The notes below the pieces were generated by a model that searched no databases, was not told the origin of the DNA, and saw nothing but the letters and a program-made list of their open reading frames with translations. This document shows positions 15,869-62,325 of a stretch of DNA of 64,000 bases, piece after piece. The DNA is from a virus (lineage: Duplodnaviria; Heunggongvirae; Uroviricota; Caudoviricetes): the IMG/VR virus record IMGVR_UViG_3300025887_000009. One strand, given 5' to 3'. Positions within the stretch are counted from its first letter, which is position 1. The number at the start of each line of letters is the position of its first letter. A program made the position numbers and the translations under genes.

Positions 15869-15897
15869 TTGACAACTTAAAGCTTTTCTTATATAAT
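15869..15897 (+). promoter_or_regulatory. sigma70-type early promoter, perfect TTGACA-N17-TATAAT
   Basis: TTGACA 15869-15874, 17-nt spacer, TATAAT 15892-15897. Extended -35 TTGACAACTT. Confidence 0.6.
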
Positions 15898-15905
15898 ACG
15901 TTTAT

Positions 15906-16415
15906 ATGGAGAAGCTTTTGAAACCTAAATTATTAATTATCGGTCATGGACGCCACGGAAAAGATACAGTATGTGAAATACTGCGCGACGACTATGGCTT
16001 TAATTTTCAAAGCAGTAGTAAATTTTGTTCAGAGAAATTCATTTACGATAAGCTAAAAGACAGATACAACTATTCTTCTGAGGAAGAGTGTTACAATGAT
16101 CGTCACAATCATAGAGAAGAATGGTATAATTTAATCTGCGAATACAATGTGCCTGATCCTTCACGACTTGGTAGAGAAATCTTTAAAGAATACGACATTT
16201 ATTGCGGACTAAGGAATGCAGCAGAATATTATGCTATGATTGATAATCATGTTTTTGATTGTGCAGTTTGGGTAGACCGATCGCAACACCTGCCGCAAGA
16301 ATCACAAGACAGCATGACAATGGACGAAGAAATGGCAGACTATGTTATTGACAACAACGGCACTCTTGAAGAACTAAAAGAGAATGTAGAAAAGTTTTTA
16401 AAAGTCGGGGCGTAA
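15906..16415 (+). CDS. dNMP kinase-like P-loop protein
   Basis: Preceded by a perfect sigma70 promoter. 'LLIIGHGRHGKDT' and C-terminal 'DNNGTLEELKENVEKFL' resemble T4 gp1 'LIFLSGVKRSGKDT' and 'TNDGSLEELFSKIKNTL'. Confidence 0.5.
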   Translation: MEKLLKPKLLIIGHGRHGKDTVCEILRDDYGFNFQSSSKFCSEKFIYDKLKDRYNYSSEEECYNDRHNHREEWYNLICEYNVPDPSRLGREIFKEYDIYCGLRNAAEYYAMIDNHVFDCAVWVDRSQHLPQESQDSMTMDEEMADYVIDNNGTLEELKENVEKFLKVGA

Positions 16416-40939: not shown

Positions 40940-40968
40940 TTGACAACTTGCACAAAGGAAAGTATAAT
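40940..40968 (+). promoter_or_regulatory. sigma70-type early promoter, perfect consensus
   Basis: TTGACAACTT...17-nt spacer...TATAAT at 40963-40968, upstream of the ORF at 41016. Confidence 0.6.
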
Positions 40969-41015
40969 TATAACATGACACAACAAAATAATATTAACCG
41001 AAGAAATTTTATAAC

Positions 41016-43216: not shown

Positions 43217-43568
43217 CTAACTGCACTGATTTACGTTTTACCCTTTTAACAGCAAGGTTGTTTAAATTTACTGTCGGACCTGTTACTACTTTTACATCTT
43301 TTGTTACCATAGACATTATGCAATATCCAAATTGATCCATTTCGTCTCCTAAGAAAATATTTATAGGTATCATTCTATTTGATTCCCACCACCAAACATC
43401 TCCTAGTTCTAAGAATGCTTGTTTTTCCAAAGTTGTCTTTAAAAGGTTGTAACTATACAAACTTGTAATAACTTGATCTTGATTTGAAATAATTCCTACG
43501 TATTCGTTGCCGCCATAGGTGACTACGCTTATGAAAGGAAAATTTTCGTTGATATCTCTTAATAACAT
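43197..43568 (-). CDS. hypothetical protein (123 aa), lone leftward gene
   Basis: ORF on the minus strand in a plus-strand context. 20-nt convergent overlap. Confidence 0.3.
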   Translation of the reverse strand: MLLRDINENFPFISVVTYGGNEYVGIISNQDQVITSLYSYNLLKTTLEKQAFLELGDVWWWESNRMIPINIFLGDEMDQFGYCIMSMVTKDVKVVTGPTVNLNNLAVKRVKRKSVQLVRRPKD

Positions 43569-43580
43569 ATAAATATACTC

Positions 43581-44363
43581 ATGCAGTTAGTGCCGCGATA
43601 TTTAGTCAATAACAGAACCGTAGTTGTCTTAGATGAAGCCGGCTTCACCGTGGAGTTCAGACCAGTGTATCAAAGAAACTTATATGTCTACAAAGGAATT
43701 GATAATGTGTTACAATTCCAAGTTAAAAACGCAGACCAAAAGCCAGTTAACATAACATCCTATACACCGAGGTTTGTTGCCTTTGATGAAAATTCAAATC
43801 AAGTGTTAGACATTAATGGTGTTCTTCTTGATGACGATTCGAGCGCAACACGTGGCACGTTTAAAGTAATAATTCCTGAGAACAATTTGCTCAATTTAAA
43901 ACAGCAGTATCTCACTTATAACATTTACATGGAAGATGCAGACAACGAAAAAGTTTTAACTTACGCCAACGAATGGTTTGACGCAACTGGTGTTATATAC
44001 TTGTCGTCTAGAGCTTTTCCTGGACCGCGGGCAACTGGCGAGATTAATACCTTCTCAAAAGTGTCACCAAGTCTTGATGAATGGACAAGTGAAAGTTTAG
44101 ACGCACAGCCTGGCATCAATGGCAACGAAGCATTGCATACTGTAGCGGTGTATACAAGCGAATACACAGGCGATGTAGTAGTACAAGGTACCTTAGAGAA
44201 CCAAGTTACTCCTAACACTGTGTGGGCTGATTTGACTACTCTAACAGCAGCTAACGAAACTGCTCCTATCTACGCAAATTTCAACGGAGTGTTTAGCTAC
44301 CTTAGAGTTAAAACAACGGTAGATCCTGCAGATAAAATCACAAAGATTCTCGTCAGGAATTAA
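43581..44363 (+). CDS. hypothetical protein (260 aa)
   Basis: ORF with no recognised domain. Confidence 0.45.
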   Translation: MQLVPRYLVNNRTVVVLDEAGFTVEFRPVYQRNLYVYKGIDNVLQFQVKNADQKPVNITSYTPRFVAFDENSNQVLDINGVLLDDDSSATRGTFKVIIPENNLLNLKQQYLTYNIYMEDADNEKVLTYANEWFDATGVIYLSSRAFPGPRATGEINTFSKVSPSLDEWTSESLDAQPGINGNEALHTVAVYTSEYTGDVVVQGTLENQVTPNTVWADLTTLTAANETAPIYANFNGVFSYLRVKTTVDPADKITKILVRN

Positions 44364-44364
44364 C

Positions 44365-44393
44365 TTGACAACTTGACCAGGCTGTGCTAATGT
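44365..44393 (+). promoter_or_regulatory. sigma70-type promoter (TTGACA-N17-TAATGT)
   Basis: TTGACAACTT -35 with a 17-nt spacer, upstream of the plus-strand MORN gene pair. Confidence 0.45.
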
Positions 44394-44414
44394 TCTTTTA
44401 AGAAAGGACAATGT

Positions 44415-44762
44415 ATGCGTAATGGATTAATCGTAGACGAAGATGGACCCAAGACTTGGTATCAAAACAATCTACTACATCGCGAAGATGGACCAGCAGT
44501 TGAATGGACAGATGGCACCAAAGCGTGGTATCAAAACAATCAGCTACATCGAACAGATGGACCAGCTGTTGAATATGCAGATGGCAAAAAGGTGTGGTAT
44601 CAAAACGGCCGACTACATCGAATTGACGGACCAGCAGTCGAACATCCAGATGGCACCAAGGTGTGGTATTTCAACGGGGAACAACTTTCATTAAACCTAT
44701 GGTTTGAACAGGTCGACGCCACCGAAGCACGAAAAACATTGATGAGGTTACAGTATGCGTAA
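44415..44762 (+). CDS. MORN-variant (YwqK-like) repeat protein, 3 repeats
   Basis: 23-aa repeats 'WYQNNxLHRxDGPAVEYADGTKx', conserved C-terminal '...TLMRLQYA', and an ATGCGTAA overlap with the next gene. Preceded by a sigma70 promoter. Confidence 0.65.
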   Translation: MRNGLIVDEDGPKTWYQNNLLHREDGPAVEWTDGTKAWYQNNQLHRTDGPAVEYADGKKVWYQNGRLHRIDGPAVEHPDGTKVWYFNGEQLSLNLWFEQVDATEARKTLMRLQYA

Positions 44763-45036
44763 TGGATTAATCGTAGACGAAGATGGAACCAAGACTTGGT
44801 ATCAAAACAATCTACTACATCGCGAAGATGGACCAGCAGTCGAACATCCAGATGGCACCAAGGTGTGGTATCAAAACAATCAGCTACATCGAACAGATGG
44901 CCCAGCTGTTGAATATGCAGATGGCGTCAACCTTTGGTTCCTCAAAGACGTCGAGCACGACTTCAACGAGTGGCTTGAGCGTGTTGACACATGTACAGAA
45001 GTAGAAAAAACAATGATACGATTGCAATATACGTAA
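44755..45036 (+). CDS. MORN-variant repeat protein, 2 repeats
   Basis: First ~85 nt nearly identical to the ORF at 44415. Ends '...TMIRLQYT'. Confidence 0.65.
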   Translation: MRNGLIVDEDGTKTWYQNNLLHREDGPAVEHPDGTKVWYQNNQLHRTDGPAVEYADGVNLWFLKDVEHDFNEWLERVDTCTEVEKTMIRLQYT

Positions 45037-45045
45037 TGGAAAATC

Positions 45046-45074
45046 TTGACAGTACACTGAAATAATGTTATAAT
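45046..45074 (+). promoter_or_regulatory. sigma70-type early promoter, perfect consensus
   Basis: TTGACA 45046-45051, 17 nt, TATAAT 45069-45074. Upstream of the primase gene. Confidence 0.6.
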
Positions 45075-45080
45075 TACAGT

Positions 45081-46064
45081 ATGAGTATTGTGTATGATAC
45101 ATTAATGACCTATCTGCCTGGCAAGAGGAAGACAACGCCGAGCGGATGGACGTCGTTTAACGCTACCTGTTGTATTCACAATGGCGAGTCTGCAGATACA
45201 CGAATGCGCGGCGGCGTTATTGGTAGTGATGAAGAAGTTAGTTATCATTGCTTTAACTGTGGCTATAAAGCAAGTCATGTTAAAGGGCGCACACTATCTC
45301 ATAATATGAGAAAACTGTTTGTTTGGTTAGGAATACCTGACGACACTATTAATAAAATTGCTTTACAACTTCTAAGAGAAAAAGAAGGCGTAGAGTCTAC
45401 AGAAAGAATAGTTCATCTACCAAGTTTTGATGAAAAGGAACTGCCTCCTGATTCTAAGCCTATTTTAGATTGGGATATCGAAAACAATCAATATATTGTT
45501 AAAGTTGCAACCTACATGAACGAACGAGGATTGTATCTTGACGACTACAACTTTCACTGGTCGCCTGATAGAATATACCGTAACAGACTTATGATACCAT
45601 TTTACTATGAGGGTAAAATTGTCGGCTGGACTGCAAGAGACGTGACAGGAAATGCAGCATCAAAATACATGTCGCACCAGCCTGTAGGATATGTGTTTAA
45701 TTTAGACGAGCAACAAAATAATCGTGTATTCTGCTTGGTGTTCGAAGGACCAATTGATGCAATATACTTTGACGGAGTTGCGATACTAGGATCAGAAATC
45801 AAAGACGAGCAAGCATTGCTAATTAATAGACTGGCTAAAATAAATGTATTAGTGCCTGACAGAGACAGCAAAGGCAAACAGATGGTTCAACAAGCAATCG
45901 ATCTAGGCTGGCTTGTTTCGTTTCCTGAGTGGGAAGAAGGCATAGATGATGCTGGCTCGGCTGTTGAAAAATACGGAAGGCTATATACGTTGCACTCGAT
46001 TATCGGCGCAATCGAGACAAGCCCACTTAAGATAAAACTAAGGATGAAGAAATGGTTTGGTTAA
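45081..46064 (+). CDS. 61: DNA primase (gp61-like; zinc ribbon + TOPRIM)
   Basis: 'CCIHNGE...CFNCGY' zinc ribbon. TOPRIM-like 'VFCLVFEGPIDAIYFDG' and 'VPDRDSKG'. A perfect sigma70 promoter lies upstream. Confidence 0.7.
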   Translation: MSIVYDTLMTYLPGKRKTTPSGWTSFNATCCIHNGESADTRMRGGVIGSDEEVSYHCFNCGYKASHVKGRTLSHNMRKLFVWLGIPDDTINKIALQLLREKEGVESTERIVHLPSFDEKELPPDSKPILDWDIENNQYIVKVATYMNERGLYLDDYNFHWSPDRIYRNRLMIPFYYEGKIVGWTARDVTGNAASKYMSHQPVGYVFNLDEQQNNRVFCLVFEGPIDAIYFDGVAILGSEIKDEQALLINRLAKINVLVPDRDSKGKQMVQQAIDLGWLVSFPEWEEGIDDAGSAVEKYGRLYTLHSIIGAIETSPLKIKLRMKKWFG

Positions 46065-46182
46065 AGAAGCTTTGGGGAATTATTAAATTTCCATACACAT
46101 GGTATAAAGAAGAGAAGGCGTTTAAAAAGCGTCTTAAGAAAATGAGAGAACAAGATCCGTTTATATACCGATAAGGAACACA

Positions 46183-47154
46183 ATGACAACAAAAATTATC
46201 TGGGGAATGACTGGTAACAGCCATGACGCAAGCATTGCCGGTTTTACACACGACGGTAAAACATTAACACCAAAATGGGCAAAGTTAGCCAATAACTCTG
46301 ACATCACCGAAGAGCTTATTCAAGGAGCAATAGAAAATGTCGGTTACCCGGATCAAGTAGTCTGGTATGAAAAACCTTTGTTAAAAACTCTACGACAATG
46401 GCGTGCAGGGCAAGGATGGTTGCTAAAAGAAAACAACATCAAGCAATATCTTGCAGAACGTAATTTATGCGACATTCCTATCGTCTATACCAAACACCAC
46501 CTCAGTCATGCAGCATATGCTTACTATACGCAACCGTATGCCGACTGTGCAATAATCTGTCTTGACTCAATTGGAGAGTTTGAAACATTAACGATGTGGA
46601 AAGGCGACAAAGACTGGCGGCTTACTAAAGTCTATTCACAAAACTATCCGCATAGTCTTGGTTTGTTTTATTCAGCTATGGTTCAGCGCGCCGGCGGCAC
46701 GCCGCAACAAGATGAACATTTGTTAGCAGCACTCGGCGATCCAGTAAAAGGTATTGATTCTCTTGTTCCTGCTATCTACGAAGATATTTTGGAAATACAA
46801 GACACTGCTCCGTTTATTAAGATGAAGCAAAACTTGCACAAAGGATACAAAGACTGGCGTCCAGATCTTAAAAAATTTAAGGATCGAAAACGCATTGCAG
46901 CGGCAACACAATCAGTATTTGAAGATTGCATCAGTCATTTGTCGTCTAAAGCAGTGTATCTAACTGGATCACCAAATCTTGCACTTGCAGGTGGCGGAGC
47001 AATGAATAAAAGAGCGGTTGACAAAATTCGAAATCAATGGCATAATGTACATGTACCGGTAAATCCAGGCGACCCAGGGTCTGCGATAGGTGCAGTTCTA
47101 GCGCGGTATAATCAGCGTGTGAACATAGACGGAATTTGGGAGACAAAGGAGTAA
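46183..47154 (+). CDS. carbamoyltransferase N-terminal (Kae1/NodU-like ASKHA) domain protein
   Basis: 'ILGMTGNSHDASIA', 'HHLSHAAYAY', 'CLDSIGE', 'SLGLFYSAMVQ', 'LAGGGAMNKRAV' and 'NPGDPGSAIGAVL' match the NodU/CmcH/TobZ N-domain. No YrdC-like C-domain. Confidence 0.6.
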   Translation: MTTKIIWGMTGNSHDASIAGFTHDGKTLTPKWAKLANNSDITEELIQGAIENVGYPDQVVWYEKPLLKTLRQWRAGQGWLLKENNIKQYLAERNLCDIPIVYTKHHLSHAAYAYYTQPYADCAIICLDSIGEFETLTMWKGDKDWRLTKVYSQNYPHSLGLFYSAMVQRAGGTPQQDEHLLAALGDPVKGIDSLVPAIYEDILEIQDTAPFIKMKQNLHKGYKDWRPDLKKFKDRKRIAAATQSVFEDCISHLSSKAVYLTGSPNLALAGGGAMNKRAVDKIRNQWHNVHVPVNPGDPGSAIGAVLARYNQRVNIDGIWETKE

Positions 47155-57095: not shown

Positions 57096-58469
57096 TTATT
57101 TAAATCGCGGTGCTTCTTTTGCTGCGCGGTCTTCCAGGTTCTTCAGTGCGCCGAGCGTAGTAAACACATCAAGTGATGTTGGTGCTTCTGCGCCGCTACC
57201 GCCGCTGTAGAAGTCTGGCATGTCAATAGTAACATCTTTCAGCGCAGGGTACATAACCCGAGCAATGTCACGTTCGATTTCTGCCATATAGATATCCTTA
57301 GCTGATTGCTTTGCACTCAATTTAGCAAGTTCAACATCTGCTTCGGCTAGACCCTTTTCGCGGATTGCCATACCTTCAAACTTTGCAGCTTGTGCAGCAG
57401 CTTCTTGGATACCGCGGTTAGCTTCGGCAATAGCAAGTTCCTTTTCCTTTTGGATCACAGCAACATCTTTCTCTTTTTGTTGCTTTACAAGTTCTTGCAA
57501 GGCTTGCTGGCGCTCTACTTCAACACGTTGCTGACCTTGGATAGTTGCAAGTTCTTTTTCCTTCTGAGCATCTTGAATAGCTTTTTGCTTATCAATTTCG
57601 CGCTCTTGCTTTGCTGCTTCTGCCTTTACACGGTTTGTGTCGATTTCCTGTTGAGCAGTAATCTTTTCACCAACCGATTGACGCTTTCGGTCAAGCAATG
57701 TTTCAAGTTGAGAATCTGCTGTAGGTTTACCAATTGTTACCTGCGTAACTTGGATACCGTATTCTGCCATAGGATTCTCAAGTCGCCGAGGTTGTCCCGA
57801 AGTCTCGTCAATGACGATCACATTTTTCATCACAAGTCGAATTTCGTTTTCAACAAGATTAGCGTTTGAGTTTGTGCTTGATACATCAGCATATCCGCTT
57901 TCTGTAACTTCAACTTGCTGTCGCTTTGTTACATATAGACCATTTGAAAGTTGATCTTCCATTTGTGCTTTGTAAGCGTTAACTCCACCTTGGATGAATT
58001 CTTCACCTGTGTACTGAGTTGCTGTAACAACTGCAACGTTGCGAGAGTTGTTAACAAGCAAAGTATCTACCAAGTTGTCAAAGCTTCGGAAATCTTGGTG
58101 CAGCTTTCGGAAGTTCTCTTCATCTACAGGCAAACGATAACGGAACGTTGCAGGAACTGTGCCTGTGTAAGTATCCGCAAAGCCGACATTAATTGCACCA
58201 AGGTTTCGAGTAAAGTTACCGTCTTCCATGGTCATATCAATTGTTGCAACACGTTTGTATTCATAGATATTAGTAAACAATGGCATCTTCAAGTGCACAC
58301 CCGGTTCCGAGTAAACAGTAGTAGAGCCCGTGAGTTTGTTTTGCACATAGTACAAATACCCTTCACTGGTAGTAAACCAAGTCGAAAGTGCCACGAATAG
58401 AACTACTACAGATGCTACTGCGTATTTTGCAAATCGTTTTACCATATTCGTAAATTCTTTATCATTCAT
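57096..58469 (-). CDS. SPFH/band-7 (flotillin-like) membrane protein
   Basis: N-terminal TM 'YAVASVVVLFVALSTWF', an SPFH-type domain, then a long Q/E/K/A-rich coiled coil with EA-rich stretches. Terminator downstream. Confidence 0.75.
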   Translation of the reverse strand: MNDKEFTNMVKRFAKYAVASVVVLFVALSTWFTTSEGYLYYVQNKLTGSTTVYSEPGVHLKMPLFTNIYEYKRVATIDMTMEDGNFTRNLGAINVGFADTYTGTVPATFRYRLPVDEENFRKLHQDFRSFDNLVDTLLVNNSRNVAVVTATQYTGEEFIQGGVNAYKAQMEDQLSNGLYVTKRQQVEVTESGYADVSSTNSNANLVENEIRLVMKNVIVIDETSGQPRRLENPMAEYGIQVTQVTIGKPTADSQLETLLDRKRQSVGEKITAQQEIDTNRVKAEAAKQEREIDKQKAIQDAQKEKELATIQGQQRVEVERQQALQELVKQQKEKDVAVIQKEKELAIAEANRGIQEAAAQAAKFEGMAIREKGLAEADVELAKLSAKQSAKDIYMAEIERDIARVMYPALKDVTIDMPDFYSGGSGAEAPTSLDVFTTLGALKNLEDRAAKEAPRFK

Positions 58470-59313: not shown

Positions 59314-59595
59314 TTACGCATATTGTAACCTCATTAATGTTTTTTCTACTTCGGTGTATGTGTCGACTAGTTCAAGCCACTCGTCAAATAAAAGTGGTTT
59401 GCCTTTATAAAACCAATGTCGGTCGCCATTTGTATATTCAGCTGCTGGGCCGTCAACACGATGCAGTCGGCCTTCGAACCACCAACTGTATTCGCCATTT
59501 GCATATTCAACTGCCGGTCCATCAGTTCTGTGCAGCAATCCGTCTTGATACCAATACCGGTCGCCGCTTGCAAGTGTAGCTACTCCATTACGCAT
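59314..59595 (-). CDS. MORN-variant repeat protein (2 repeats)
   Basis: Last gene of the array. 'MRNGVATLASGDRYWYQDGLLHRTDGPAVEYANG...TLMRLQYA'. Confidence 0.65.
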   Translation of the reverse strand: MRNGVATLASGDRYWYQDGLLHRTDGPAVEYANGEYSWWFEGRLHRVDGPAAEYTNGDRHWFYKGKPLLFDEWLELVDTYTEVEKTLMRLQYA

Positions 59596-60142
59596 ATTGT
59601 AACCTCATTAATGTTTTTTCTACTTCTGTGTAATTGGCGTGTTCGAGCCAATCAATGAAGTTGTACTCGACGCCTCTGAAGTACCAAAGCTTAGAACCAC
59701 TTACGCGGTCAACTGCCGGACCGTCGGTTCGGTGTAATTCTCCGTTTTGATACCAAGCCCGATCGCCATTTGCGTATTCAGTTGCTGGTCCAGCTGTTCT
59801 GTGTCGTTGATTGTTTTGATGCCACTCCTTGGTGCCACTTGCGTATTCAACTGCTGGTCCGTCAATTCGATGTAGTTCTCCGTTTTGATACCACATCTTA
59901 GTGCCATTTGCACGTTCAGCAGCTGGGCCATCAGTTCTGTGTCGTTGCCCGTTTTGATACCACTCCTTATCACCATCTGCAAATTCGATTGCTGGTCCGT
60001 CAATTCTATGTAGTAAGCCGTGTTGATACCACTCCTTGTTGCCATCTGGGTATTCAACTGCTGGCCCATCGTCGCGATGTAGTAGACCGTTTTGATACCA
60101 AAACCGGTCGCCGGATTTGTTTGTGATCATTCTATTACGCAT
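59588..60142 (-). CDS. MORN-variant repeat protein (6 repeats)
   Basis: 23-aa repeats. 8-nt ATGCGTAA overlaps on both sides. Confidence 0.65.
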   Translation of the reverse strand: MRNRMITNKSGDRFWYQNGLLHRDDGPAVEYPDGNKEWYQHGLLHRIDGPAIEFADGDKEWYQNGQRHRTDGPAAERANGTKMWYQNGELHRIDGPAVEYASGTKEWHQNNQRHRTAGPATEYANGDRAWYQNGELHRTDGPAVDRVSGSKLWYFRGVEYNFIDWLEHANYTEVEKTLMRLQYA

Positions 60143-60551
60143 ACTGCAACCTCAACATTGTTTTTTGTACTTCGTTGAAAGCGACCTCTTCAAGCCAGTC
60201 ATTAAAAAAAAGTGGTTCATTTTTAAGGAACCAACGCCGGTTGCCATTTGCGTATTCAATAGCTGGTCCGGTGGTTCTGTGTAGTAGATCATTTTGATAC
60301 CAATACCGGTCGCCCGCAGCGAATTCAACTGCTGGTCCATCTGTTCTGTGTCGCTGGCCGTGTTGATGCCACTCTTTGCCGCCACTTGCATATTCAGCTG
60401 CTGGACCATTAGTGCGGTGTAGTCGGCCTTTAAAATACCAATGCTTGTCGCCGTTGTGCCATTCAACTGCTGGTCCATCTGTTCTGTGTCGTCGGTCGTT
60501 TTGGTACCAAATCTTGGTGCCATTTTTGTCTACGATCAATCCATTACGCAT
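60135..60551 (-). CDS. MORN-variant repeat protein (4 repeats)
   Basis: Same repeat family and C-terminal 'TMLRLQYA'. Confidence 0.65.
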   Translation of the reverse strand: MRNGLIVDKNGTKIWYQNDRRHRTDGPAVEWHNGDKHWYFKGRLHRTNGPAAEYASGGKEWHQHGQRHRTDGPAVEFAAGDRYWYQNDLLHRTTGPAIEYANGNRRWFLKNEPLFFNDWLEEVAFNEVQKTMLRLQYA

Positions 60552-61098
60552 ACTGCAACCTCAACATTGTTTTTTGTACTTCTGTGTAATTGACGTGTTC
60601 AAGCCAGTCATTTAAAAAAAACGGTTCACTTTTAAGGAACCAACGCTGATTGCCATTTGCGTATTCAATAGCTGGTCCATCTGTTCGGTGTAGTTGATTG
60701 TTTTGATACCAATACCGGTCGCCGCTTGCGCGTTCAATCGCTGGGCCATCTGTTCTGTGTCGTCCGTTGTGTTGATACCAATACCGGCCGCCGCTTGCGC
60801 GTTCAATCGCTGGGCCATCTGTTCGATGTAGTCGGCCTTCGAAATACCACTCCTTGTCGCTGTTGTACCATTCAATCGCTGGGCCATCTGTTCGATGTAG
60901 TCGGCCTTCGAAATACCACTGCTTGGTGCCATCGTTCCGTTCAATCGCTGGTCCATTTGTTCTGTGTCGTTGCCCGTGTTGATACCACTCCTTGCGGCCA
61001 TTTGCATATTCGACTGCTGGTCCTTGGTCTCGATGTAGTAGATCATCTTGATACCACACCTTAGCACCTTGAATGTCTACGATCAATCCATTACGCAT
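60544..61098 (-). CDS. MORN-variant repeat protein (6 repeats)
   Basis: Same repeat family. Confidence 0.65.
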   Translation of the reverse strand: MRNGLIVDIQGAKVWYQDDLLHRDQGPAVEYANGRKEWYQHGQRHRTNGPAIERNDGTKQWYFEGRLHRTDGPAIEWYNSDKEWYFEGRLHRTDGPAIERASGGRYWYQHNGRHRTDGPAIERASGDRYWYQNNQLHRTDGPAIEYANGNQRWFLKSEPFFLNDWLEHVNYTEVQKTMLRLQYA

Positions 61099-61645
61099 AC
61101 TGCAACCTCATCATTGTTTTTTCTACTTCGGTGATGTTAACAAGTTCAATCCAGTCGCCAAAGGAACACCTAACGCCTTCGAAGTACCACTTTTTGGTCC
61201 CACTTGAGCGCTCAATAGCTGGGCCATCTGTTCGGTGTAGTTCTCCGTCTTGATACCACACCTTTTTGCCAGTTGCATATTCAATCGCTGGGCCATCAAT
61301 TCGATGTAGTCGGTTGTGTTGATACCACTCCTTGGTGCCACTTGAGCGCTCGATTGCCGGGCCATCTGTTCGATGTAGTTCTCCGTCTTGATACCACACC
61401 TTTTTGCCAGTTGCATATTCAACTGCTGGTCCGTCAATTCGATGTAGTTCTCCGTGTTGATACCACTCCTTGGTGCCATCTGCGAATTCAACTGCTGGTC
61501 CGTCAATTCGATGTAGTTCTCCGTTTTGATACCACTCCTTGTGGACATCTGCATATTCAACAGCTGGACCATCCGTTCGATGTAGTTGGCCGTTTTGATA
61601 CCAAGTCTTGGTTCCATCTCCTTCTATGATCAATCCATTACGCAT
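61091..61645 (-). CDS. MORN-variant repeat protein (6 repeats)
   Basis: Same repeat family. Confidence 0.65.
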   Translation of the reverse strand: MRNGLIIEGDGTKTWYQNGQLHRTDGPAVEYADVHKEWYQNGELHRIDGPAVEFADGTKEWYQHGELHRIDGPAVEYATGKKVWYQDGELHRTDGPAIERSSGTKEWYQHNRLHRIDGPAIEYATGKKVWYQDGELHRTDGPAIERSSGTKKWYFEGVRCSFGDWIELVNITEVEKTMMRLQYA

Positions 61646-61985
61646 ATTGTAACCTCATTAACGTTTTTTGTGCTTCGGTATAATCGGTGTGTTCAAGCCA
61701 TTGGTCGAAGCTGTATATATCGCCTTTGATGAACCACAACTTGGTGCTGCTTGAATGTTCAACTGCTGGACCATCTATTCTGTGTCGTTGCCCGTGTTGA
61801 TACCACTCCTTGGTGCCATCGCTCCATTCAGCTGCTGGTCCATCTTCGCGATGTAGTAGATTGTTTTGATACCACATCTTGCGGCCATTTGGATATTCAA
61901 CTGCTGGCCCGTCAACACGATGTAGTTCTCCGTTTTGATACCAAGACTTAGTGCCATTTTCGGTTATGGTCAATCCATTACGCAT
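61638..61985 (-). CDS. MORN-variant repeat protein (3 repeats)
   Basis: Same repeat family. The first ~60 nt are identical to the next gene. Confidence 0.65.
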   Translation of the reverse strand: MRNGLTITENGTKSWYQNGELHRVDGPAVEYPNGRKMWYQNNLLHREDGPAAEWSDGTKEWYQHGQRHRIDGPAVEHSSSTKLWFIKGDIYSFDQWLEHTDYTEAQKTLMRLQYA

Positions 61986-62325
61986 ATTGTAACCTCATTA
62001 ACGTTTTTTGTGCTTCGGTATAATCGGTGTGTTCAAGCCATTTGTCGAAGCTGTACCTGATGCCTTTGATGTACCAATACCGTTCGCCATCTGTATATTC
62101 AACTGCTGGGCCATCTGTTCGATGTAGCTGATTGTTTTGATACCAAAAATGATTGCCATTTGGATATTCAATAGCTGGTCCGTCAATTCGATGTAGTTCT
62201 CCGTTTTGATACCACTCCTTATCGCCATCTGCAAATTCGATTGCTGGTCCATCGGTTTGATGCAGTAGATTGTTTTGATACCAAGACTTAGTGCCATTTT
62301 CGGTTATGATCAATCCATTACGCAT
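61978..62325 (-). CDS. MORN-variant repeat protein (3 repeats), first of array
   Basis: RBS AGGAAGAAATATG on the minus strand. Same repeat family. Confidence 0.65.
   Translation of the reverse strand: MRNGLIITENGTKSWYQNNLLHQTDGPAIEFADGDKEWYQNGELHRIDGPAIEYPNGNHFWYQNNQLHRTDGPAVEYTDGERYWYIKGIRYSFDKWLEHTDYTEAQKTLMRLQYA

Follow-up and report, generated by a model that had tools for sequence, protein, structure and literature searches.

The question raised by this locus is how two small, overlapping repeat-protein genes, here called S1 and S2, came to lie between a virion gene and the primase gene of the uncultured tailed jumbo phage (Caudoviricetes) recorded as IMGVR_UViG_3300025887_000009, of which a stretch of 64,000 nt (the window) was analyzed. 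An initial annotation of the same DNA had described the pair as a second, smaller locus of the repeat-protein family that forms a large array of seven genes (B1–B7) elsewhere in the window, and our analysis agrees, with S1-S2 on the plus strand and the big array on the minus strand. Overall, the evidence makes it probable that S1-S2 is a 681-nt two-gene accessory cassette that was inserted at the −35 box of the primase promoter, that is old or foreign relative to the present big array, and that was later homogenised and converted. The coordinates of the features are collected in Table 1.

The nine proteins are built alike and align in exact register, with a 24-aa head (MRNGLI..), a number n of 23-aa units (DGPAvEyxdGxKxWYQNGxLHRx) and a 45–46-aa tail that ends in ..EKT.MRLQYA. 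When the family is defined, as we do here, by the head MRNG(L/M)I, the 23-aa units and the tail ..WLE..TE.(E/Q)KT.MRLQYA, S1 is a full member and S2 is a member with the variant end MIRLQYT. The initial annotation had also noted that S1 and S2 share the overlap typical of the family; this 8-nt overlap, ATGCGTAA, is present at S1/S2 as it is at all of the big-array junctions, and a GAGG Shine-Dalgarno (SD) sequence is located within the Met-Arg codons of the upstream tail at every junction in the window and in the array of another phage (contigs L081/L082). This arrangement suggests that translation of S2 is coupled to that of S1, with the Met-Arg codons of the S1 tail acting as ribosome-binding site (RBS) and the S2 ATG overlapping the S1 stop. 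The gene starts are near-identical over ~85 nt, as had been stated: counted from the ATG, 85/86 nt match, as two exact matches of 33 and 52 nt on either side of a single mismatch at 44448. Aligned colinearly, the first 173 nt are 94.8% identical, and the first 171 nt of S2 form a mosaic of S1 blocks of 52, 42, 36, 35 and 24 nt. The two tails are of unrelated type, that of S2 being one residue longer and of the DTxTE type also found in B7. The earlier repeat count of 3 and 2 is correct for HRxDGPA motifs; a count of WY hairpins gives 4 and 3.

The origin of the locus was addressed by comparison with 80 relative contigs (L001–L080; primase identity 46–62%) kept from 596 primase relatives confirmed in IMG/VR. 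Both flanking genes, the upstream virion gene (43581–44363; PHROG "virion structural protein") and the primase gene (45081–46064), were present in 76 of them. The gap between these two genes is 13–49 nt in 67/76 contigs, mostly 38–40 nt, and none of the 80 contigs contains a family gene within 6 kb of the primase locus. Positions 44364–45051 are hence read as a lineage-specific insertion of 681 nt at the −35 box, between two copies of CTTGACA, because of the short gap in these relatives and the lack of a family gene in all 80. In 9/76 contigs, unrelated inserts of 238–1942 nt occupy the same position; the gap between the virion gene and the primase is an accessory-gene insertion hotspot of the clade. 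These other inserts (in L002, L005, L019, L016, L017, L025, L049, L050 and L043) encode proteins of ~65, ~120 and 249 aa, plus a 578-aa beta-barrel-like protein of outer-membrane type with a duplicated promoter. Among GenBank phages, the primase relatives belong to jumbo phages at ~31–38% identity, and a megablast search of 43500–46200 against phage records gave no match.

The spacer of the relatives inspected reads stop codon, TTGACA, 17 nt, TATAAT, 6 nt and ATG, with TTGACA lying within a few bases of the virion-gene stop in the relatives shown. This spacer is a consensus sigma-70-type promoter, from which a leaderless primase mRNA would be expected. In the window, the order is TAA (44361–63), C-TTGACA (44364–70), the S1 leader, S1, S2, ATACGTAATGGAAAAT and a second C-TTGACA (45045–51), and the primase start is devoid of an SD sequence. 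An ATG located 6–8 nt past the −10 box is also a feature of the other two perfect consensus promoters in the window (15869–15907 and 40940–40976).

The history that we propose is as follows: (i) in this jumbo-phage lineage, a mini-array cassette would have entered the conserved leaderless virion–primase promoter exactly at its −35 box, most likely by recombination at promoter sequences; (ii) the left CTTGACA copy, together with a TGcTAATGT located 17 nt downstream, plausibly constitutes a new promoter that would now drive S1-S2, and the right copy would stay the intact primase promoter; (iii) transcription would be early and carried out by the host RNA polymerase; (iv) the cassette would be old or foreign with respect to today's big array, given synonymous divergences (dS) of 0.6–1.2; and (v) after the insertion, S1 and S2 would have been homogenised with each other and would have exchanged tracts of ~40–80 nt with B1/B2 via gene conversion. 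In support of the second step, TTGACAACTT at the left promoter copy is also present in the perfect promoters at 15869 and 40940.

By analogy only, the nearest known system may be the PeSL (promoter-early stem-loop) shuffling of T4-type phages, in which cassettes of small genes that are not essential are bounded by promoters (Arbiol et al., 2010, PMC2839356; Comeau et al., 2014, PMC4122927). The two have in common small, non-essential genes between conserved core genes and a site that varies between close relatives, and may also have in common bounding copies of a strong sigma-70-like early promoter; they differ in that the flanking repeat here is only 7 nt (CTTGACA) and in that the lineage is a different, jumbo one. 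Two CTTGACA copies flank the insert, with a full consensus promoter at the right copy only. No stem-loop terminator was detected (0 terminator-like sites in 43400–46300), and neither mini-circles nor a donor site were observed for the S cassette.

Several observations weigh against parts of this history. The 7-nt repeat on the two flanks coincides with a promoter element and therefore does not discriminate between insertion mechanisms. When a donor of the S1 leader or of the 3′ end was sought in the window, only promoter-box matches of ≤11 nt were returned. The −10 element of the proposed S1 promoter (TAATGT) is weak, matching the consensus at 3/6 positions, and falls below the threshold of the promoter scan, which is why it was not listed there. 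With regard to the conversion step, the S1 and S2 copies of the shared tracts discussed below are not independent, so that the tract statistics rest on two events, and shared ancestry of particular units could leave similar tracts in place of gene conversion.

The relation of S1-S2 to the big array was examined at the level of full-length genes, units and exact tracts; a tblastn search revealed no third family locus in the window. Over its full length, S1 is 63% identical to B1/B2 in amino acid sequence and 73–74% in nucleotide sequence, compared with 59–66% and 67–72%, respectively, for the 115-aa genes of L081/L082, and no S gene exceeds 74% nucleotide identity to any B gene. The values of dS are 0.62 for S1-B1 (dN/dS 0.44), 0.58 for S1-B2 (dN/dS 0.45) and 1.24 for S2-B7 (dN/dS 0.33). 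S heads and tails are 70–83% identical to those of the B genes and of the L081/L082 genes alike. The proposal that the locus was seeded from the big array is not upheld by these data: since dS is 0.6–1.2 and the heads and tails are as distant from B as from the array of another phage, the sequences indicate that the S locus is not a recent copy of the present big array. The similarity between the two loci is nonetheless not confined to the protein level, the DNA identity to the big array being 72–88% per unit with exact tracts of up to 43 nt. S1 and S2 are intact, are under purifying but relaxed selection and are predicted to fold well.

The array used for this comparison contains at least 16 genes (L081 4301–8244, overlapping with L082 1–4232; 16 complete distinct genes plus partial ones). 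Its genes carry the ATGCGTAAYGG overlap throughout and encode proteins of 69, 92, 115, 138, 161/162 and 184 aa, which are near multiples of 23. Exact junction patterns gave no match in IMG/VR, and a metagenome scan for the junction pattern returned two chance matches in unrelated bacterial contigs and two contigs of the same phage. The L081/L082 array sits downstream of rIIB, Macro-domain and Thg1-like genes.

Among the alternatives, the one that survives best is horizontal acquisition of the cassette from the array of a co-infecting phage, the tracts shared with B1/B2 being due to later conversion, or to chance and codon usage. We regard this as a tentative alternative; it overlaps with the explanation favored here, which leaves the donor open. 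It is consistent with the identity of S1 to array members of other phages (66–68% with P0088, P0093 and P0099, vs 63% with B1/B2), with the presence of an S1-type tail (EQVDAsEA) in mid-array position in another phage, and with the unrelated foreign genes that the insertion site takes up in relatives. However, no donor was found, and the nucleotide identity of S1 to the B genes of its own genome is slightly above that to the L081/L082 genes. A strain-variant family gene, N1 (from L100), was considered as donor of the S heads and tails and was rejected, being only 83–85% and 77% identical.

The initial annotation had also left room for exchange between the two loci, and this part of its claim fared better. 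The exact tracts shared by S and B genes measure 43, 43, 41 and 35 nt, against ≤24 nt for the larger arrays of L081/L082, and they lie within stretches of ~60–80 nt that are 94–97% identical over a background of ~77%. In permutations of the B-unit columns, a tract of 43 nt was reached with P = 0.0055 at the codon level and P = 0.0005 at the nucleotide level. The tracts thus exceed both the permutation nulls and what is shared with the other phage. For this reason (43- and 41-nt tracts, permutation P ~0.005, ≤24 nt against the other phage) the sequence evidence favors short-tract gene conversion with B1/B2 after the insertion. A doubtful alternative is that the 41–43-nt tracts reflect constraint on the WYQNNxLHRxDGPA core together with codon usage, with no exchange at all. 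The tracts do fall on the part of the unit that is most conserved, and runs of 25–30 nt are expected at ~80% background over thousands of in-register comparisons, the mean maximum of the permutations being 24–27 nt. Yet the codon-column permutations attained 43 nt in only 0.55% of trials and never produced three tracts of ≥41 nt, and two larger arrays of another phage with the same motifs stay within the 24-nt limit.

A third possibility, that the locus is a recent and direct same-genome copy of part of the big array (59–62 kb), with the string ATGTATGCGTAA upstream of S1 as a fossil of the donor junction, is disfavored and in our judgment improbable. Family and junction are the same at both loci, B1 and B2 share the exact tracts of 41–43 nt, and ATACGTAATGGA has been kept at the 3′ end of the cassette. 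These points are opposed by the full-length nucleotide identities and dS values given above, by heads and tails that are equally far from another phage's array, and by an S1 upstream region that does not significantly resemble a junction.

The last point concerns the "relic junction" that the initial annotation had placed 5′ of S1, which was not supported. The string acaATGTATGCGTAATGG is present at 44408–44425. Its ATGCGTAATGG portion corresponds to family codons 1–4 (M-R-N-G), that is, to the first codons of S1 itself, and because these codons occur in every member, their presence at the S1 start is uninformative on any former upstream gene. Within the window, ATGCGTAATGG was found 11 times with ≤1 mismatch, against 1.06 expected, and 0/100 shuffles reached 11. 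Upstream of the ATG, only ~3 bases (the T at −1 and a few more) can be aligned to a junction, and a 2-nt indel is needed to do so. When the 44 nt 5′ of S1 were compared with the nine real junction contexts, they behaved like shuffled sequence (P ~0.5), as did the region upstream of B1 (P ~0.99). A test limited to the last 24 nt gave P = 0.035 and was discounted, as it depended on a shifted alignment outside the junction register. We also considered the mini-ORF (open reading frame) encoding M-Y-A as a functional upstream ORF; this is unlikely, as its ATG lies 2 nt from the SD, vs the optimal 6 nt for the S1 ATG. In the L081 array, the first gene is preceded by gagattgcaatATGCG, which is 15/16 identical to the internal junctions of L081; first genes can therefore retain a junction-derived ribosome site, although S1 does not convincingly do so.

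By comparison, a relic at the 3′ end of the cassette appears better supported than the one at the 5′ end. The TGGA found directly past the S2 stop corresponds to head codons 3–4 of a next gene, and the SD near the S2 end is lost, with ATG changed to ATA (45016–18) and the Arg codon AGG changed synonymously to CGA (45019–21). Judging by these remnants, the cassette resembles a piece cut out of a longer array, in which the tail was kept and the signals for the next gene decayed. In the big array, the terminal gene B7 retains both the SD and ATGCGTAAT. The ATGCGTAAT past B7 opens an 18-codon ORF, MRNQQSYMYTKQKEKQNV (59321–59265, minus strand), which ends in a TGA that shares an 8-nt overlap, ATGTCTGA, with the ATG of the following gene (59272), in the same geometry as within the array. 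This short ORF could be what is left of an eighth gene, or else a bridge for coupling.

The weakest alternative, that big-array reads were misplaced beside the primase during assembly, is effectively refuted, for although short-read contigs often break inside family repeats, and short-read marine viromes recover too few repeat proteins (PMC9238414), S1 was found in 8 contigs and S2 in 7, from several JGI and ENA samples, the four contigs read (L083–L086) were 99.98–100% identical to the window and joined S1-S2 to both flanks, and the window contains no second copy of the S tails or of the S1 leader, which are unique sequences. The order virion gene-S1-S2-primase is evidenced by the link of S1 to the virion gene in L083–L085 and that of S2 to the primase in L083 and L086.

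The invariance of the S locus in those four contigs differs from the state of the big array, which varies among near-identical strains of the phage. In L089, B1 (with the substitution K95Q) is followed directly by B3, without B2. In L094 and L095, which come from two samples, the sequence is identical to B3 up to 61424 and then joins B6 in frame from 59791, with ~1.6 kb removed; an assembly artefact seems unlikely here, because only 9 nt are shared at the join and a k-mer assembly jump would need more. In L100, B1 and B2 are separated by two additional genes (117 and 115 aa).

Regarding inversion, the initial annotation was correct in placing the two loci ~15 kb apart in inverted orientation; 14.3 kb lie between them, and the longest common tracts are 41–43 nt. 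Inversion isomers were not seen in the 8 contigs with the S locus, short-read assemblies being unable to reveal minority isomers. A fixed inversion with a breakpoint at the S locus is ruled out, because both flanks keep their orientation relative to the 76 relatives. A further, speculative idea to which we give little credence is that the S locus and the big array form a joint recombination-driven diversification system, in which cassettes of 23-aa units are swapped by in-register gene conversion. If this were true, a crossover would now and then invert the segment between the loci and leave all reading frames intact, and the population would hold a shifting repertoire of early MORN-like binding proteins, perhaps tracking variable host targets or defences, akin to the archive and expression-site logic of antigenic variation.

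The label "MORN", under which the family was first described, is correct for the predicted fold and not for the Pfam model, which matches none of the proteins. An AlphaFold2 model of S1 (from an alignment of 7 sequences) had a mean predicted local distance difference test score of 93.4 and displayed serial short beta-strands followed by two C-terminal helices. In a Foldseek search against the PDB, each of the top 20 matches of this model was either a MORN-repeat protein or an axonemal, junctophilin or SET7/9 chain containing MORN; those named include TgMORN1, MORN4, TbMORN1, junctophilins and SET7/9. On the basis of the model, the label "MORN-like fold, not a Pfam MORN member" is defensible. 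What speaks against a MORN-like fold is that (i) an hmmscan of the nine proteins against Pfam-A (E ≤ 0.1) gave no match to MORN (PF02493) or MORN_2 (PF07661), and (ii) the Foldseek E-values of S1 were marginal, the best being 2.7e-3, with a template-modelling (TM) score of ~0.45. Sequence searches of the family in PHROGs, NCBIfam and PDB gave nothing usable.

The sole curated match was DUF6745 (PF20530), with 36.2 bits for S1, 31.2 for B1, 43.8 for B3 and 36.6 for B6 (cut-off 27); S2 (26.6) and the remaining family proteins score just under this threshold. The match covers profile positions 62–102 of 206 only, so that what the phage proteins have in common with DUF6745 is the repeat motif, without the rest of the domain. 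Metagenomes are rich in this repeat (>7,700 proteins at E ≤ 1e-3, nearly all "hypothetical"), and most of the database homologues are annotated as DUF6745. Some cultured phages, for example Celeribacter phage P12053L and Atu_ph07, have single repeat-bearing genes without the head, the tail or the junction. Literature searches on DUF6745 and on MORN arrays in phages found no description.

Compared with the MORN-repeat proteins (PF02493; TbMORN1, TgMORN1, MORN4, junctophilins and the SET7/9 N-domain), the phage proteins are alike in their 23-residue period, predicted beta-hairpin units, elongated antiparallel sheet, and Gly and aromatic residues at fixed positions. They differ in their motif, which is xGxKxWYQNGxLHRxDGPAxE instead of YxGxWxxGxxHGxG, and in being only 93–184 aa long, with a fixed head, a helical MRLQYA tail and overlapping tandem arrays. 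By analogy with MORN proteins, in which the groove of the sheet binds lipids or partner proteins, S1 and S2 might, with low confidence, be early-expressed adaptors that bind proteins or lipids.

Two further comparisons place the gene arrangement. Giant viruses possess tandem multigene families of repeat proteins (MORN, ankyrin and FNIP), whose behavior is known as the "genomic accordion". Tandem paralogous repeat genes, strain-variable copy number and dispersed secondary loci are common to both, whereas the present case involves a bacteriophage, tiny genes, and a fixed 8-nt overlap with the RBS in the last codons of the previous gene. Translational coupling via overlapping stop and start codons (ATGA and TAATG types) is likewise well known. 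The upstream stop located 5 nt past the downstream ATG and the SD within the upstream coding sequence are the standard geometry of termination-reinitiation; the difference is that the 8-nt overlap is here conserved within a duplicated unit, at all junctions and across phages, the coupling itself being proposed from the sequence.

Taken alone, S1-S2 represents an ordinary event, in which an accessory cassette arrived at a promoter hotspot and its paralogues were then homogenised. Both of its aspects are of known kinds, the insertion being that of a moron-like cassette and the genes being dispersed paralogues of a tandem multigene family; it is the family itself that is uncharacterised. The locus dates and localises one dispersal event of this abundant repeat-protein family and provides one genome with two differently regulated copies of it. 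Strain-level gene gain and loss, together with the two loci, place the family among the most plastic parts of widespread aquatic jumbo phages. This plasticity is of more interest than the S locus itself, and the family is a reasonable target for asking what these early proteins bind.

Table 1. Features of the S1-S2 locus and of the big array (positions in the window)
Feature	Position	Strand	Description
Left CTTGACA copy	44364..44370	+	TTGACA at 44365–70, right after the virion-gene TAA; the ancestral position of the primase −35
Putative S1-S2 promoter	44365..44393	+	TTGACA, 17-nt spacer, TGcTAATGT extended −10 (TAATGT at 44388–93)
SD AAGGA for S1	44404..44408	+	6 nt 5′ of the S1 ATG; read from the sequence
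ATGTATGCGTAA	44411..44422	+	"Relic junction" of the initial annotation; mini-ORF M-Y-A-stop, ATG 2 nt past the SD
S1	44415..44762	+	ORF of 115 aa; 24-aa head, two 23-aa units, 45-aa tail ending in MRLQYA
43-nt tract identical to B2 unit 1	44457..44499	+	B2 61874–61832; repeated in S2 at 44797–44839
S1/S2 array junction	44744..44762	+	SD GAGG at 44744–47, 7-nt spacer, ATGCGTAA start/stop overlap at 44755–62
S2	44755..45036	+	ORF of 93 aa; head, one unit, 46-aa tail ending in MIRLQYT
41-nt tract identical to B1 unit 2	44866..44906	+	B1 62145–62105; 35 nt also in S1 at 44526–44560
Decayed 3′ junction ATACGTAATGGA	45029..45040	+	ATG changed to ATA at 45029–31; 4 nt of next-gene head beyond the S2 stop
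Right CTTGACA copy and primase promoter	45045..45074	+	CTTGACA at 45045–51; TTGACA-17-TATAAT at 45046–74, 12/12; ATG 6 nt on, at 45081
Big array B1–B7	59314..62325	-	115, 115, 184, 184, 138, 184 and 93 aa; same 8-nt overlap at all joins
Big-array operon promoter	62784-62756	-	TTGACA-17-TATAGT

Long ORFs, both in an alternative sense frame and in antisense orientation, accompany every family gene (44443–44694, 44783–45004, 59701–60069, 60152–60523, 60612–61067 and 61123–61617), antisense ones being exemplified by 61273–61629. These extra open frames are most simply regarded as a by-product of a repeat unit that is free of stops in those frames. Programmed frameshifting across the junctions, which would yield fusion proteins, was weighed and no supporting evidence was found. 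Elsewhere in the window, the gene at 46183–47154, adjoining that of a DnaB-type helicase, encodes a carbamoyltransferase N-domain protein (by the Pfam match of the identical gene in L083), and the gene at 57096–58469 encodes a 457-aa protein that, by its sequence, looks like a coiled-coil membrane protein of the SPFH/band-7 type (candidate). Both would be unusual accessory functions for a phage.

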